In this document: positions 8,215 to 34,526 of the stretch, in pieces
Numbering within the stretch: the first letter of the stretch is position 1
Layout of the letters: every line of letters begins with the position of its first letter
Origin: a virus
Taxonomy: Duplodnaviria > Caudoviricetes
Length of the DNA: 64,000 nucleotides
Strand: one strand, 5' to 3'
IMG/VR virus record: IMGVR_UViG_3300011008_000016
Coordinates: 64,001-128,000 of that record
Position numbers and translations under genes: made by a program
The notes under the pieces: model-generated
Databases searched by the model: none
What the model was told of the DNA's origin: nothing
Seen by the model: only the letters and a program-made list of their open reading frames with translations

Positions 8215-8384
8215 ATACATAAGATAACCAATAACCATTTACTACTTAGATAAAGCGAAAATGCAGAGATACAGAAGTTAAGGAGCTATCAATTCGTATT
8301 ACAACTCTACGAAAGATAACCTTATTTCTGCATCTCTGCATTTTTCGTAGCAAGGGGGCGAAAGCCCCCTTCTACCCGTTTTTT
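8215..8384 (+). ncRNA. putative small hairpin RNA
   Basis: follows TATATTAA; long imperfect stem 8256-8347; GGGGGC-GAAA-GCCCCC terminator with T run; no ORF. Confidence 0.5.
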
Positions 8385-8438
8385 GTATATTTCCAAAATT
8401 CCGGTTCACAGACTTTTCGCAACTATATTAAATACTTA

Positions 8439-9040
8439 GATATACAGAATAAATCCAAAGATAATGCAATTAGAAAGGAACATTATCAGATTCTATATAT
8501 CGAGTCTATAGAAAGGAGTGAACCTTCGGTGAAAAACATTTGGTCAAACTTGGCACTTGCTACAACAGGGAAGCATAATCCAAATTATACAGGTGTCCAA
8601 GCGATGAGTGATTTACAGAAGAGACTGCCTGCAAGTACAAGGATTGCTACTCGTAATGTGTCCGCATTACACGTAACCCAAGACTTGCAAGGCAGTCTCA
8701 TTCTTCTGTAAGTTACCACCGTCAACCAGTGGTGATTGGTAACCGCAGTTTCATGGACGAGTATGATTCACATCGTTCAAATATTGCGGATAATCCCGAA
8801 CTGTTTGAATCTGACATTAATCAGATAATGGCAGTTCTGGGTTAAATCCCATCATTACGACATACCATCCATTCTAATTCTGCAATTATCAAATTGTTAT
8901 AATATAAATAATCTATTAGAATATGATGGTATGAGATGGTGCTACAGAAATCGTACCTTGACAACTGAATAAAATAGGGGTGGTCGGTCGCGACTCAACC
9001 ACCCCCCTTACACTATACACCCTATGATAATTTATAGGGC
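8439..9040 (+). ncRNA. putative large structured RNA (chain of about 9 hairpins)
   Basis: follows TATATTAA at 8424; back-to-back imperfect stems; only a 60-codon ORF inside. Confidence 0.5.
8529..8711 (+). CDS. possible small peptide inside the structured RNA
   Basis: GTG preceded by GAAAGGAG; 60 aa with no recognisable motif. Confidence 0.3.
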   Translation: MKNIWSNLALATTGKHNPNYTGVQAMSDLQKRLPASTRIATRNVSALHVTQDLQGSLILL

Positions 9041-17218: not shown

Positions 17219-17279
17219 CTTCTTAGTAAGTGATAAGAAGAAGGATGCGACTCCGAAAGGAACCCCACCCCTCTTCTTA

Positions 17280-20240: not shown

Positions 20241-21083
20241 ATGGATATAAATAAGCTATTAAAAGCTGGGAAAAAAGCTTGTGGTAGAGTACTAAAACTT
20301 CTTCCACGAGATGGAGAAGATGGGATTGGTTCCCCTTTAGCATATATGATGCAAACCCTTGAAGATGATACTTTAATGTCAATTAATATACTTCACCCAT
20401 TACTTATTAAAAAGACTTTTAGTACTGGTTTCTTAACACCAGTAGATGTACATAGTGATGAGGTCCTTGATTTAGCAGTTGATAATCAATTGATGAATCG
20501 AGTTATGAACGATGATAGATATTCTATGTATAGAATGCCTTTATCTCTAACAGATGGTCATGAAGTAATGTCTATCAAATCTTGTGTACCAGTGCGATCA
20601 AATGGTGCAAGTCTTGGGATGTATGGTGATTTTTATAATGAGTTACCATGGAACAATCATTTTGGTAGAACTACCAGTGGTGATTTATATGGTTCTACAA
20701 TGGCTGCGCTTGTCGATTATGCGGATAGACAATTACTTGGTGGAATTTCCAGAGGATTCCGGTTCTATTTCTTTAGTCCAAATATTTTTTCTTGTACAAA
20801 TTACGTTGGTGCTCTTAACGCTACGTTTTGTTGCAAGAATGACTCATCACTTATTTCTTGTGATGATACGACGTTTGAGTATGTAAAGAGATTATTTGTA
20901 TTGGATTTAAAGAAGAATATATATAATGAATTCGGAAACTTCACAGAATTGGATACAGCATTTGGAACATTGGATTTGAAGATAAGTGATTGGTCAAGTG
21001 CAGAAAGTGAACGGAATGAGTTATTTGATACCTTGAAGACTACTGCACACTTTAGAACTTCTTCTATGCGGTCATCAGGATAA
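20241..21083 (+). CDS. hypothetical protein (late)
   Basis: 280 aa, AAAGGAG RBS, CACA-N6-TAA at 20198. Confidence 0.8.
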   Translation: MDINKLLKAGKKACGRVLKLLPRDGEDGIGSPLAYMMQTLEDDTLMSINILHPLLIKKTFSTGFLTPVDVHSDEVLDLAVDNQLMNRVMNDDRYSMYRMPLSLTDGHEVMSIKSCVPVRSNGASLGMYGDFYNELPWNNHFGRTTSGDLYGSTMAALVDYADRQLLGGISRGFRFYFFSPNIFSCTNYVGALNATFCCKNDSSLISCDDTTFEYVKRLFVLDLKKNIYNEFGNFTELDTAFGTLDLKISDWSSAESERNELFDTLKTTAHFRTSSMRSSG

Positions 21084-25924: not shown

Positions 25925-27112
25925 TCAGAAGTCATCATCAACATCTCCATCTAAATCTGTATCAATGGTTGGTGTTGGTTGCTGCTCCGATGTAGTGTTG
26001 TTTAATGAATTTATATAATCGACTATGCCAAAATCCGACTTGTAAATAACAACTGGAGTTCTGGCTAAGAAGTAATACTTCGAATATGTGAGTGTTTCAC
26101 TATCGACATCATTGGCATCTTTCCAATAGATGGATAATTTGTATTGCTCGTTGTCTTTCGGTATAAAAATGAACGGTTTCTCGTAGATATCTTCTCTCCG
26201 AAAATCTTCATTACTTATAGTAAAAACACTAAGCTTTACAATAACTCCATCTGGAACATGAATGAGTCGATTTACATTTGCGATATAATCTAGTGTACAT
26301 ATTCCATTCTTCTGTTCCTGTATCTCACCGGTATTATCGTAGATTTTATTCATTATAAATGGTAAATCTACGAGTTCATTATCAGCCAGTGTAATTTGAT
26401 AAGGGTTCGGTTTTGTCCAGAGTTTCATATTGTTTCGTTTGATAAATTCTCTGGGGTTCTCAATATCATTCTCGTTCCTATCAGAGACAACGATACGATA
26501 TAATTTATCCGTTTCTACGTTTGTAAGTCCTGTGGAATTCAGTATGTTCGTTGTAGAAATGAAACCCTCGTTGACATCATATGCCAGTATCGCGATTGTC
26601 CTAGTTGCCGAACAAGCATATTCAATCATATCATCTAAAGCTATATAATTCTTAGAACGAATCATATAATTCCCTTTGATTTTGTTGCCATTGTATATGT
26701 CGAGACCACCATATTCCCATTCACATTCTGCAAGAATGTCTCTTAGATAGCCGTTATTAAATGCACTGAACTTGTCAAACGAAACCATTCCATTGTTGAG
26801 ATTGGTAACCTCACTTTGAATCCGACTACTACTCCATGTATCACCGGAATTTGCATCCGTATCGTCTATTTCAGGGATATATGTAACTTTGTCACTACCA
26901 GATGTATCAATCCATGCTTTTGTATGTGATGGTGGTGTCTCGTCACCAACGTATATATCTCTATATTTCTTTATTTGCTCTCGCACAGCGTCACCTGCAC
27001 TTGCGTAAGTAGTTTCGCCATCTATACCAATACGGATATCGATAAGTTCTGCGTCACCTGTAGTTGAGCCATCGTTTAATGAAACAATTTGACTGATTCG
27101 GTTCCGTTCCAC
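25925..27112 (-). CDS. N-terminally truncated (silent) paralogue of tail-associated protein 34665-36050
   Basis: colinear with 34665-36050 from [12 protein letters not shown] to DGDVDDDF; no RBS before GTG 27112. Confidence 0.75.
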
Positions 27113-27115
27113 GTT

Positions 27116-27125
27116 TAAATCAGAA
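27116..27125. other. candidate recombination crossover site (copy at 35874-35883)
   Basis: TAAATCAGAA in both copies at the point where paralogue homology ends (codons S-D-L). Confidence 0.4.
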
Positions 27126-27278
27126 GTTAAGTAAATAAGAAAAATGAAGGATTAGACTTGTAATTAGAAATGTAAACTTTAGTATAGTTGGAATAAAAAT
27201 CCGTTTTGTAGGAGATTTATTACTATATTAATACGTTAGATACAAACAAACAAGTCTTCATACAAAAGGAGGAAGATT

Positions 27279-27881
27279 ATGATTCACACGAATGTTTATT
27301 TGAACCAGATGGGCAGCGACTATATGGGAGACATGGTCAAGGTTCATCCAGATGATATCAAACAGTCACATATGACACTGTTGGCTCCAGTTGGTAAGCG
27401 TCATGATGTTATTATGGGCTATGCTGAACTTTTGGAGAACGGCTTTGATCTCGGTGCATTTGAGATTAATGGGACATTCAACGACAGTATCTCGGTTGTC
27501 AGATTTTTGAAGAAATATATGCCTGTTAAGAAAGAGCAGGGAACCGAGATCGCTAATTACGTGTACATCAATATTCCTGAAAAGGATAATAAGTACTATG
27601 TTGTACGTCATGATGCAAGTAGTTGCCGTGTATATGATATCCACGTTGACTTAATCGTCAATTACACGCTCGGGAAATATATGTACGTTGATGCTATTTG
27701 CTTCCGTTTCTTACAAGTTGACCTAATAAATTCTGTAAGTATTCTTTACTCTCATGAATGACATAAGTATCATCCATATATCGACCATATAGAAGAGACC
27801 CAGCTTGGATTGCCTGCTGCTAATGATAATGCCCCCGAACTTTCAGAAGATGATCTGAAACGGATATTTGCTGACAAGTGA
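27279..27881 (+). pseudogene. early hypothetical gene interrupted by an 82-bp RT fragment (premature stop 27761)
   Basis: same frame resumes at 27789 (IEETQLGLP...FADK*) and ends at 27881 before the terminator. Confidence 0.65.
27708..27789. repeat. exact 82-bp direct copy of 29244-29325 (RT YMDD region)
   Basis: base-by-base identity. Confidence 0.95.
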
Positions 27882-27902
27882 TTTCGGCGTAACAAATGGA
27901 GG

Positions 27903-27934
27903 GGAGCAAGGTGGTATCAAAACCACCTTGCTCC
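27903..27934. terminator. bidirectional terminator
   Basis: GGAGCAAGGTGGT / ACCACCTTGCTCC. Confidence 0.7.
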
Positions 27935-27965
27935 TATAAGTAAAGAAATGAAAAAGAATCTTTTT

Positions 27966-28793
27966 TTATACCTTGGTTGTATATGCAAGACATATCCAAC
28001 CTACACCACTCTTGAGTCTACCCCATTTAGTATTTCCTACCATCTTTTCTTCGACGATAGTATACTTTTCATTCTTCTTTATAGTGGTGACTAATTTGTA
28101 GGTAGAACCTGCACCAGCACGAACATTTAGTTCCGTCGCGGTAACTTTAACAACGTAAGATGTAGATGAACCGCTAGAAACTGACGCCGTTGAGTCTTTC
28201 TTTTTTGTATCCGTACTGGTCGATGTATCACCTTTTAAGATACTTTTTATCATTGCTTTAAATGCATTCCATTCGGCATTGTTTGCACTTGCCATCTGAA
28301 GTGGACACGCTTTACGAGTAATGTCATAATGACGTAATACATAAGTATCAACCTGAGACGCTGTGATTCCAAGCATCTTGCAGATATAAGCACAGAGTTG
28401 AGCAGCAACTGCTTTTGTCGTCTCAGAGACTTTATAGTCCCCTGATGTACACATCTCAATTCCGATAGAATTTGTATTCCGACAAGAAGCATGATAATAC
28501 TTACCAGATGTACCGCAATGCCATGCCCTGTCTCGAAGTTCTACGGATTGACGGATGTGAGAATCATCAACAAAGAAATGTGCAGAAGCTCCACGCCCAC
28601 CAGAAGTGTTGAAATACCTACAATTTGCTTCGGCTGTATCTTTTGGATTCCCAGTATAATGCATTACAACATAGCCAACTGAACGACTTGCTTGGTTGGT
28701 ATAATTCCCAGCATTACACGGGATGTTGTATTCTACGGGTATTCCACCAATTACTGTGTTGGTTAAAAATCCAGTTGAAATAGTTTTAGCCAT
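27966..28793 (-). CDS. N-acetylmuramoyl-L-alanine amidase (Amidase_2 + SH3b) endolysin
   Basis: VMHYT, ASAHFFVD, AWHCG, NSIGIEMC, RHYD..RKACP; C-terminal LNVRAG...WGRLKSGVGWI. Confidence 0.92.
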   Translation of the reverse strand: MAKTISTGFLTNTVIGGIPVEYNIPCNAGNYTNQASRSVGYVVMHYTGNPKDTAEANCRYFNTSGGRGASAHFFVDDSHIRQSVELRDRAWHCGTSGKYYHASCRNTNSIGIEMCTSGDYKVSETTKAVAAQLCAYICKMLGITASQVDTYVLRHYDITRKACPLQMASANNAEWNAFKAMIKSILKGDTSTSTDTKKKDSTASVSSGSSTSYVVKVTATELNVRAGAGSTYKLVTTIKKNEKYTIVEEKMVGNTKWGRLKSGVGWICLAYTTKV

Positions 28794-28905: not shown

Positions 28906-30123
28906 TCAATAATACGAATCATCATAAAGCCAGTCCTCAACAAATAGTTTGTTATGTAATTCGTCCATTCGTCGAATTGTTTGGTATGCATTATACCATT
29001 GTGCATTGCCTCGCCAAGACCCGTATCCGTTACGGACATCACTATAGTGAATCTTTCCTTCTTTTACCAAGTTTGCCATTCTCTTTAATTTCCGTCTTTC
29101 ACGAACAATGTTATCGTGAGGCATATTCTTAATGATTTTACCTGTCTCTGTGAGATTGTATTTTGTTTTAAGGAATGTAAATTTCGTAAGAGGACAAATC
29201 TGCGTTTTCTTTTCATTTACATGAATACCCAAATCTGTACATATTCTTACAAGTTGACCTAATAAATTCTGTAAGTATTCTTTACTCTCATGAATGACAT
29301 AAGTATCATCCATATATCGACCATAATAATGTAAACCACGAACGATTTTGCAGTAATTATCCATTTGAGTCGGATATAATATCCCAGAGATTTGTGATAT
29401 CTGACTACCAATCCCAAGAGACTTCCGCATCATCTTCTCTCCGGTGTGGAGTTCTTTTGGAATGTTATTGTAGTATTCCAGAGAATTAAATAAATCCTCT
29501 CTACAATGACTAAACTCCTCATCGGACATATATGATACATCTATCTCAAAGGTACTAATCAAATAAGTCACAATTCCCATTGCTAACTCATCTGGTATTT
29601 TCTCATTAAAATAGTTCAAGAGTTTTTCATGGTCAATATTGTCAAAGAATTTACGGAAATCAATTAGTAATACATATCCTTTGTTTGTTCCGTGTTTGCG
29701 ATAATACTGATGTAGGTGTCGATCTAATCGTTTACGTGTAAATCCGATTCCGCGTCCTTTGATCGATGCACCGTTGTCATAAATAAGATACCTCTGCACG
29801 GACGGATTAAGAATGTAGTCACAAACTGCACGATTAATCACACGGTCAGAGATATGCAAACTTTTAACGTGGCGGCGCTTTCCACGCTCATACAATGGAA
29901 ATTCGTAAAATGGTTTTTGTACGTATGTTCCATTGGACAAAACCTTCACAGTCCTATTGATGTTTTTAAGCATTGATGCCTCATATCGCTGTACGGACTC
30001 TTTCCAATCGACTCCCTTCTGCGAATTTTTGAATGCATCATACAAATTATTTGCATCTAACAACTTAGAAAATAGAGGATATTCGATTTCGAAATCCTCT
30101 ACATTTATATTTTCAGGAGTCAT
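28906..30123 (-). CDS. brt: DGR reverse transcriptase
   Basis: ERGKRR, DRVIN, GRG, LIDFRKFFDNIDH, GIGSQISQ, YGRYMDD, FTFL; likely start ATG 30123, with 30124-30259 as the TR-RT spacer. Confidence 0.93.
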   Translation of the reverse strand: MTPENINVEDFEIEYPLFSKLLDANNLYDAFKNSQKGVDWKESVQRYEASMLKNINRTVKVLSNGTYVQKPFYEFPLYERGKRRHVKSLHISDRVINRAVCDYILNPSVQRYLIYDNGASIKGRGIGFTRKRLDRHLHQYYRKHGTNKGYVLLIDFRKFFDNIDHEKLLNYFNEKIPDELAMGIVTYLISTFEIDVSYMSDEEFSHCREDLFNSLEYYNNIPKELHTGEKMMRKSLGIGSQISQISGILYPTQMDNYCKIVRGLHYYGRYMDDTYVIHESKEYLQNLLGQLVRICTDLGIHVNEKKTQICPLTKFTFLKTKYNLTETGKIIKNMPHDNIVRERRKLKRMANLVKEGKIHYSDVRNGYGSWRGNAQWYNAYQTIRRMDELHNKLFVEDWLYDDSYY

Positions 30124-30259
30124 AGTTTTTAACCCCTTGTTTATAGCCTCAACTGTCGTAACAGGACGCATCAATGGGGTAAATTCACCTTGCGGACGGA
30201 CAAGATCTCCTTTCTTAATTCTCCATGTCGGCTCTACATAGCCTACTCTTAGCATGGTC

Positions 30260-30358
30260 TAAGAAATCGGGCGCACACCGTTCGAGTTGGACGCGTTGTT
30301 GTTATTGGAATTGCCATTGTTGTTGCAATTCGCAAAGTTCGTCGAGTTCGCAACGGCT
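30260..30358 (-). repeat. DGR template repeat (TR) with IMH*
   Basis: 13 AAC/AAT codons; matches 33325-33424 except at adenines and one indel at the 3' end. Confidence 0.95.
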
Positions 30359-30416: not shown

Positions 30417-31238
30417 CTACGTAGTTGTTACCTGCTCAGAAATAATTTTTGGAGAATTGTTCACAGACGTATTAATGATGGTTTTAGCATCACAGACCTC
30501 GTCGTCATCCAATTCGGTGTATTCCCTGATGAATCTATCTGCATACGATTTATGTTGATTATTGGCTGTTGCCGTGTTTTCAGTTTCTGTTTTGTCTTTG
30601 GTATGTTTCTTTTTGCGTTTCTGTTTTTGTTGGTTATTATAATCGTACTCTTCTCGAACTTTCTTTTCAATCTTCTCTCGTTCGATTTCTCTATGAAGGT
30701 CATTCGCATAGATTTTCTTTAAGAGACGATTGTCGCTCTTTCGCCAAGCTCGAAGTAGAGCAATTTCTTTTTCGATGAGGTCAACGTAAGGTAAATATTT
30801 GTTCACGTTAATATCAATCACCGTAAGGATATATTGTAATTCTTGTAGTATCTGTTCACAACAACCAATGGCTTGAGACTGATATTTTCGTCGTTCTGTC
30901 CATTCATCCATAGTTGTTGGATATAATGTATTTGCTTGAATAATGTTTCGAATAAGAAACCTGACTTCCGACATAACCCTGACTCGCATATCGGAAATTA
31001 ACCACTCAGGGTATTCGTCAACGATATTTCGTATTCCATACTTATCAACGATTTCCAGAAACTGTTCTGTATCCTCTGGAGACATTCGATTGATTCTCGT
31101 ATAGAGTTCTGAATTACGAACTTTAGCCTTGACACCGAAATCCCTGAGTAGTAATTCCGTTATGTTCTTTCTTATCTTGTATGCCGTGTGTAAAAATTCA
31201 AGTCTTGAGGTCTTTCTCTTACTTTTAAGTACCGACAT
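30417..31238 (-). CDS. avd: Avd-like accessory protein with basic C-terminal extension
   Basis: MSVLKSKRKTSRLEF...ANTLYP...RRKYQSQAIGCC...LLRAWRKSD; directly upstream of TR; TACA-N6-TAA at 31280. Confidence 0.85.
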   Translation of the reverse strand: MSVLKSKRKTSRLEFLHTAYKIRKNITELLLRDFGVKAKVRNSELYTRINRMSPEDTEQFLEIVDKYGIRNIVDEYPEWLISDMRVRVMSEVRFLIRNIIQANTLYPTTMDEWTERRKYQSQAIGCCEQILQELQYILTVIDINVNKYLPYVDLIEKEIALLRAWRKSDNRLLKKIYANDLHREIEREKIEKKVREEYDYNNQQKQKRKKKHTKDKTETENTATANNQHKSYADRFIREYTELDDDEVCDAKTIINTSVNNSPKIISEQVTTT

Positions 31239-31317
31239 ACGATTTAGTTCCTTTCTCATAAAGATGTAAAAGATTTCATTATAAAAATGTATGTCGTTTG
31301 GAAATTAATTAGAAATA

Positions 31318-33315: not shown

Positions 33316-34526
33316 TCAACCGATTAAGAAATACGGGCGCACACCGTACGAGTTGGACGCGTGGCTGTAACCGGAATGGCCATGGTAGTTGCAAACCGCA
33401 AAGGTCGTCGAGTGCGCAACGGCTCCAGATGAGCAATCTTAGCCGCCGGATTCAGACGGAACAGGTTGAACTGGGTGTTATTTGCTCCGATATCATAGAA
33501 CGAAGAACTCATAACGGTAGAACCATACAAATTCACTTCACTCATCAGACGAAGCTGTAAGCTAACCCATTCCCATCCACTCGCCGCTCCAGTTAAGCCA
33601 GCACCTGCCATAGAAGCACTGTTATTAGAAGCGTTCGAAATTAAACTCTTGTAAGAGAGCAGGTGACTACTTCCAATTACATTAGCAATCGCAGTTGCAT
33701 ATGCAGGAAGCGTTGTAGAATGCATGACTGTTGACTTATATCCACCGGTCACCACATCCGAAGTATTCATCTGAGCGGTTGTCTTGAAGCAGTCCGCAGG
33801 AACAATCGTTGCATGGTGCTTGGTCAACTCCGTATCACCGTTCCCAAGGAAGGTATCAAAGTCAGCCAATACGCACTTAACAACCTCACTACCTCCAATA
33901 GAGGAGTTAATCGTTATTGTGAAAAAGTCACCGATGAATAAATCATCGAAGCTCCCGTCGGCAATCTTAGCACAAATCTGGTCAACCGTATAGATATTGG
34001 CCAGATCCTTTCCTCTAAAGATAGAGTTATGTGCACCGGCATTGCTCTCCACAGACATTCCACCAGTCTGTCCAGATAAACCAGAGATGTTACTCTCAGC
34101 CGTAGTCATCCTTGACTGTAAGCTACTGATATCAGACGTATGGGTGCCAATAGTGGTACCCTGTGTAGAAACGGTACCCTGCAATGTAGAAACATTTCCC
34201 TGAACGGTGGACATGTTGCTCTTTAACGTAGATACGTCGGAGGTCAGAGAAGATACATCCGGAATATCCAGATTGTTTACCGTAGTCTCCAACGTACTAA
34301 CACGCGTTTTCGTGTTTTCAACATCAGCCTTAAACTCCTCAAAGGACAGTACCACATTCTCAGGTACGAATTCCTCTAAGAATTCAGCCTCTGTTCCAGT
34401 AAACCCAAGCCTCTGGGCGATTTCGTAGGAAGATTCTCCTCTGTCCCCAGTGATAGCAGCGATACCTTCGTATTTGCCACTATCGGGATTTACCACTTTA
34501 AGTGTTTCCTTACGAATAGGTAACAT
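33316..34526 (-). CDS. DGR target receptor-binding protein (DUF6273/CLec-like), frameshifted at the VR 5' border
   Basis: main frame stops at 33324; the VR frame reads AVAHSTTFAVCNYHGHSGYSHASNSYGVRPYFLIG* to 33316. Confidence 0.85.
33325..33424 (-). repeat. DGR variable region (VR)
   Basis: 13 substitutions against TR, all at TR adenines. Confidence 0.95.

Follow-up and report, generated by a model that had tools for sequence, protein, structure and literature searches.

An 82-base copy of a DGR reverse transcriptase gene within a neighbouring phage gene: probably a templated insertion

How does a piece of a reverse transcriptase (RT) gene, catalytic motif included, come to lie antisense within a neighbouring gene, and does it do anything there? 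The question arises from the window, a stretch of phage DNA of 64,000 nucleotides (positions 64001-128000 of a 244,309-bp IMG/VR virus record), in which one part of the RT gene of a diversity-generating retroelement (DGR) occurs a second time, about 1.5 kb away. The original prediction, made from this stretch, saw in the copy a possible brake on DGR activity, and named a recent illegitimate capture and an assembly chimera as alternatives. Of these readings the capture is the best supported: homologues of the interrupted gene show a gap of exactly 27 codons, and both copies are present in three assemblies.

The duplicated segment and its donor

The predicted exact copy is there: positions 27708-27789 equal positions 29244-29325, with 100% identity over 82 bases in direct orientation. 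The repeat has two copies, no more, in the whole record, where self-comparison ranks it as the longest exact internal repeat of the 244-kb genome. A match of 82 bases by chance is effectively impossible. The features concerned are:

27279..27761, + strand: recipient gene in its present reading, 160 aa; residues 1-143 are the conserved core, residues 144-160 are insert-derived
27708..27789, + strand: RT-derived copy; 81 nt inserted (27708-27788), then a 1-nt overlap, A 27789
27789..27881, + strand: cut-off original C-terminal tail of the recipient, IEETQLGLPAANDNAPELSEDDLKRIFADK plus stop, homologous to the P0003 tail
29244..29325, - strand: donor copy in the RT gene, RT residues 311-337 (YGRYMDD...LVR), native

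Translation of the donor segment gives RT residues 311-337, YMDD included (YGRYMDDTYVIHESKEYLQNLLGQLVR). In alignments with nine related RT loci (37-76% identity) this segment is free of indels except for a single residue in L003, and this identifies the RT gene as the donor and the + strand gene as the recipient. That the catalytic YMDD region was the part copied is put down to chance.

Within the recipient, the + strand of the insert is the antisense of RT. It contributes 17 foreign codons and then a TGA at 27759-27761, where the stop had been predicted. The other predicted details of the reading frame hold as well: the ORF that opens at 27279 reaches codon 144 exactly at 27708, and the original frame is open again from 27789 to a stop at 27879-27881. 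The 82-bp extent stands as the length of the match, but alignment with the homologues described below shortens the inserted block to 27 codons, or 81 nt; A 27789, the 82nd and last of the matching bases, is either the recipient gene's own or a 1-nt overlap at the junction.

Two ways of giving the insert a coding role were considered and rejected. A decoy RT peptide finds no place, since on the minus strand the insert's RT frame runs for 41 codons from stop to stop and has no credible start. Read-through of the TGA, or an alternative code, is unlikely because TGA is an ordinary stop in this genome, where it ends 57 of the 208 genes called, and because the 244-kb jumbo phage lacks tRNA genes (ARAGORN).

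The recipient gene and its homologues

The conserved core of the recipient protein (residues 1-143) belongs to a very rare phage protein family. A HMMER scan of 1.84 billion representatives returned two relatives: P0003, 201 aa and 60% identical to the recipient protein, and P0004, 176 aa and 33% identical. A profile search added none to these two, and the family comprises three clusters, no more, among 5.8 billion proteins. No Pfam family matched the protein, look-alikes in the Atlas all scored below 0.9, and its AF2 model had no match in PDB or BFVD at E <= 0.001.

The original prediction had proposed looking for the uninterrupted allele in relatives, and both homologues supply it in protein form. 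In a three-way alignment the window protein carries a single block of exactly 27 extra columns relative to P0003 and P0004; directly after this block, IEETQLGLPAANDNAPE of the window aligns with MEETKIECPADNKTEPD of P0003. The match between the two tails comprises 7 anchored identities in 17 (shuffle p = 1.5e-4). Absence of the same 27 codons from both homologues points to 81 nt inserted cleanly and in frame after codon 143, directly before the codon that originally followed it, and bears out the predicted resumption of the frame. The locus that encodes P0004 (L015) has the window's gene order: the homologue is followed by convergent amidases, and these by an RT with 76% identity to that of the window. 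The neighbourhood is therefore old and the insertion new.

An empty allele from the same species was not found when metagenome and viral contigs were scanned for exact matches to the left flank, the right flank and the predicted empty-site junction; this is weak evidence, and records near the window's own may be masked. Positions 27100-28000 had no DNA match in the INPHARED phage collection. Peptide patterns run against IMG/VR, five related virus records and a tblastn search of RT-related loci likewise gave no relative of the recipient gene; the closest jumbo relatives do not have the gene at all.

What the insertion cost the recipient can be estimated from the family. Conserved columns stop at F142 of the alignment, the AF2 model of residues 1-143 (pLDDT 73, pTM 0.71) places the last strand at residues 134-142, and the tails of the three members, all acidic, differ in length (31, 62 and 44 aa). 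The insert thus removes only a variable tail: the 31-residue acidic tail is lost and the entire conserved domain is retained. On this account the effect on the recipient gene was probably near neutral.

In one relative contig an intact recipient homologue lies beside an RT gene that is broken up into a 307-aa ORF and an upstream fragment (L018:3034-4201), apparently a decayed DGR.

The DGR and its surroundings

The donor gene is part of a block on the minus strand in which the TR is followed by RT and then by an endolysin gene; the recipient gene is convergent with the last.

27902..27935, strand not assigned: hairpin between the recipient and endolysin genes, with a perfect 14-bp stem (-28.3 kcal/mol, z = -4.8)
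27966..28793, - strand: endolysin (Amidase_2 + SH3_3), between the two 82-bp direct repeats
28906..30255, - strand: DGR reverse transcriptase, 449 aa, intact; RVT_1
30268..30358, - strand: DGR template repeat (TR), with RT directly after it
33334..33424, - strand: DGR variable repeat (VR), with 13 differences from TR, 13 of 13 at TR adenines

These features are those of a DGR: an RVT_1 reverse transcriptase (Pfam PF00078, E = 3.7e-18) with a YMDD-type motif (YGRYMDD at residues 311-317), and a TR/VR pair that differs only at TR adenines. Upstream of TR is a 280-aa avd-like ORF (30417-31259) with no Pfam match. The record also encodes two beta-like and one beta'-like RNA polymerase segments, which fits a phage of the phiKZ/AR9 type. 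The hairpin is likely a bidirectional terminator, which would leave the insert upstream of it in the + strand transcript.

A programmed deletion switch between the two direct repeats was considered and rejected, as such a deletion would remove the endolysin and truncate RT, a dead end.

Other assemblies and a second genotype

Exact protein sequence look-up located further contigs that bear the insert. Both 82-bp copies, identical to those of the window, are present in JGI 3300011005 Ga0139361_1000683 (21,323 bp) and in ENA ERZ3810914 NODE_81 (52,682 bp, SPAdes, coverage about 5). Both insert junctions agree base for base among these contigs and the window, three assemblies that may have some raw data in common. 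Every assembly found for this phage carries the insert.

The ENA contig represents a distinguishable genotype. Over window positions 18906-40218 (about 21 kb) it differs by 5 SNPs outside VR, 8 differences within VR, and 37 extra bases at 33424|33425, and divergence between the two genotypes is about 0.02%. Presence of the insert in at least two genotypes shows it to be real and inherited.

All 8 VR differences between these otherwise near-identical genotypes (window 33334-33424 against L026:6832-6922) fall at TR adenines. This is direct evidence that the DGR of a phiKZ/AR9-type jumbo phage is active in nature. As both genotypes bear the insert, retrohoming continued in its presence. Judged from these VR changes, the insert does not shut the DGR off, although it may damp it partially; the simplest history would place the insertion first and retrohoming afterwards.

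The 37 bp present in the ENA genotype (L026:6795-6831) are missing from the window exactly at the 5' edge of TR-VR homology. In the ENA genotype VR is in frame at the C-terminus of an intact 415-aa target protein (end ...QWYWLSAVANSTTF...GVRPYFLIG). In the window the deletion causes a frameshift, so that the target has 400 aa and VR is read out of frame. The deletion looks like the scar of an aberrant or failed retrohoming event, or else a polymorphic site. These side results, the VR change at TR adenines and the 37-bp retrohoming-like scar, may outweigh the insert in usefulness.

The JGI contig, which ends at 33424, has a deletion of its own. It lacks window positions 20445-20608 (164 bp), so that the 280-aa gene at 20241-21083, intact in the ENA contig and in the window, is split into ORFs of 74 and 154 aa; the deletion ends show no obvious repeat. 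Two junction-type indels, of 164 and 37 bp, against 5 SNPs in 21 kb suggest that illegitimate joining is frequent in this lineage when compared with point mutation.

Origin of the insert

The junctions are nearly devoid of homology. Microhomology amounts to 0 nt on the left and 1 nt on the right, there is no target-site duplication, and zero recipient bases were lost. Short templated insertions are a known outcome of template switching during replication or of break repair (FoSTeS/MMBIR-type events, 'filler DNA', illegitimate recombination in phages). The insert has their characteristics: the donor is kept, the copy lies nearby in cis and in direct orientation, microhomology is minimal, and the homologues are uninterrupted. 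As in FoSTeS/MMBIR-type insertions, a nearby donor was copied rather than moved, 0-1 nt of microhomology marks the junctions, no target site is duplicated, and the recipient is restored exactly. Unlike typical filler DNA, the donor here is a retroelement RT's catalytic core, and its copy lies antisense in an expressed-looking gene.

We consider it likely that the insert arose at the DNA level as a templated insertion, by template switching or break repair, and that it was near neutral. During replication or repair of a double-strand break, a nascent strand would leave the recipient gene after codon 143, copy 81 nt from the same strand of the RT gene, 1.5 kb away, and return to exactly the next recipient base. 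The product would be a clean 27-codon insertion with an internal TGA, which would then persist by descent within a near-clonal phage population; the complementarity of 82 nt of recipient mRNA to RT mRNA would be a by-product. The template-switch or repair mechanism itself is an inference from the anatomy of the junctions. Since these have almost no microhomology, a break may equally well have captured a free (copied) DNA fragment by blunt joining.

The insert is thus best read as an ordinary structural mutation: a clean, well-bounded, natural short templated insertion in a jumbo phage, for which the donor, the recipient and empty-site homologues are all available. It also illustrates that a short exact repeat in a phage genome from a metagenome need not be an artefact.

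Antisense geometry and promoter motifs

The predicted antisense arrangement is present: the insert lies antisense to RT in a + strand gene with an early-type motif, a strong ribosome-binding site and a downstream hairpin. An upstream element had been predicted at 27224, and TATATTAA is found at 27224-27231.

27222..27242, + strand: early-type promoter motif ACTATATTAA-N6-AGATA, upstream of the recipient; a repeated intergenic family
27265..27272, + strand: ribosome-binding site AAAGGAGG, 6 nt before ATG 27279, as read from the sequence

The window contains 2 exact matches to ACTATATTAA-N6-AGATA, and 5 with at most 2 mismatches against 0.6 expected. The motif is part of an intergenic family of about 55 nt that occupies ten or more sites in the genome. 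These elements (AAAAATCCGGTTCACAGA..TTTTG.AACTATATTAAATACTTAGATAT) lie upstream of genes, at 8379-8443 and 27190-27245 in the window and at 17233, 52453, 156941, 161307, 175280, 184158, 195994 and 215466 of the full record (C1); two copies are 98% identical over 95 bp. They are likely to be early promoters, served by the virion RNA polymerase (RNAP). An early-type motif is also conserved upstream of the gene for P0003.

The recipient's upstream motif resembles the early consensus of the AR9 virion RNAP, AAATATATATTAT-(6N)-G; the late promoter motif of that phage is AACA-(6N)-TA/G (PMC5312081). Motifs like the AR9 late one are enriched here: for CACA-, AACA- and TACA-N6-TA the factor is 9, 4 and 3, respectively, over the 120 nt that precede each of 208 crudely called genes, and a NACA-N6-TA copy stands before the avd-like gene. 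Within the insert, sigma-70-like promoter matches are no more frequent than in shuffled sequence. The predicted mRNAs of the recipient and RT genes are perfectly complementary over 82 nt. Given the early-type motif, its resemblance to that of AR9, and the late-type motif before the avd-like gene, it is plausible from motifs that an early + strand RNA would carry 82 nt complementary to a late RT mRNA.

Regulator, reverse transcript or artefact?

Antisense control has well-known examples in the OOP RNA of phage lambda, which acts against cII with RNase III, and the RNA-OUT of IS10, which acts against transposase mRNA. Both are encoded in cis opposite their targets and are conserved. The insert is like them in the long perfect complementarity of a separately promoted RNA (a predicted one here) to the mRNA of a key enzyme. 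It is unlike them in that this complementarity comes from a recent ectopic copy in the coding region of another gene, absent from all relatives examined. A functional brake would have the early recipient transcript pair in trans with the late avd-TR-RT-lysin mRNA and be kept by selection; the duplex would be cleaved or would block translation, so that RT, and hence DGR activity, would be delayed or lowered. For such a brake speak the perfect 82-nt pairing and the layout of the recipient gene, with its early-type motif (kept upstream of P0003), its ribosome-binding site and, past the insert, a terminator hairpin. The 3-9 fold enrichment of NACA-N6-TA motifs, one of them before the avd-like gene, fits the early/late logic of AR9, a phage for which antisense RNAs have been reported (PMC5312081), and the insert is in all assemblies found for the phage. 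Conservation is where the idea fails. An RT-derived copy elsewhere in the locus is absent from all 11 of the related loci, so that complementarity over 82 nt goes with no conservation in related elements; the homologues are uninterrupted, and the closest jumbo relatives lack the gene. Exact identity of the two copies is uninformative about selection where whole genotypes diverge by no more than about 0.02%, and VR changed at 8 TR-adenine positions between insert-bearing genotypes, so the DGR is not silenced. The predicted brake on DGR activity is therefore not supported, and we regard it as unlikely. It is quite improbable, too, that the insert is a newly arisen trans-antisense regulator retained by selection, whose early virion-RNAP transcript would hold down or delay RT expression. 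An evolved regulatory role is not needed to account for the observations. Were the antisense reading true, the insert would show that in a single step an element's coding sequence can yield a regulator of that same retroelement. It would also be the first description of RNA-level control in a DGR, observed just as a templated insertion gives rise to it.

Mutagenic retrohoming, for which the DGR of Bordetella phage BPP-1 is the paradigm, offers another source for the copy. The likeness is that the same cassette supplies the sequence and that the element is active, with VR differences only at TR adenines; the differences are that the insert comes from the RT ORF rather than TR, has no adenine substitutions, and occupies a site with nothing like an IMH. 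It thus lacks two features that define a retrohoming product: adenine-specific substitutions, and a TR template with flanking homology or IMH. With 30 T and 28 A on the + strand of the 82-mer, either strand as template would have offered about 30 adenines, and none is changed. By comparison, VR differs from TR at 13 of 28 adenines in the window (about 46%) and at 14 in the ENA genotype; at the observed TR-VR rate the probability of no change in 30 adenines is about 1e-8. The insert is therefore not DGR cDNA, and the prediction that it does not look like mutagenic cDNA is borne out by 0 differences in 82 nt. In a variant of this idea the enzyme, preferring templates in cis, would have copied RT's own mRNA into cDNA, which was then captured where the neighbouring gene had broken. 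The donor is indeed RT's own message, the genome has an apparent scar of aberrant retrohoming in the 37-bp deletion at the 5' edge of TR-VR homology, and a preprint describes some bacterial RTs as acting in break repair (bioRxiv 10.1101/2022.03.14.484287). Against this stand the unchanged adenines and the position of the segment, about 930 nt into the RT ORF and far from TR and the spacer; the recipient flanks show no resemblance to the TR or VR ends, and the insertion site has no likeness to the GC-rich VR end. Such a reverse-transcribed origin is very unlikely. As for an assembly or library artefact, whether a chimeric join or a misplaced repeat, the metagenomic source invites the suspicion, as does the oddity at the VR edge of the window contig, where the 21-kb contig also breaks. 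But both junctions recur base for base in three assemblies, SPAdes and JGI ones included, and one of these is a distinguishable genotype; the insert begins on a codon boundary and leaves a gap of exactly 27 codons in homologues; and an 82-bp repeat is shorter than typical reads, so an assembler had no reason to invent the copy. The chimera once proposed as an alternative is extremely improbable.

Other features of the genome

The two ends of the record (C1 3-74 and 244238-244309) overlap by 72 identical bases, which suggests a circularly closed assembly or terminal redundancy; IMG/VR classes the record as linear. A run of 16 N stands at C1 209141-209156.

The locus that encodes P0004 has a direct repeat of its own. 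Two copies of 102 bp with 99% identity (L015:752-853 and L015:7668-7768) cover the start and upstream region of two minus-strand genes, one of 173 aa and the other a 280-aa DGR target, which thus have a promoter and N-terminus in common. This suggests recent gene conversion or duplication among fibre-like genes.
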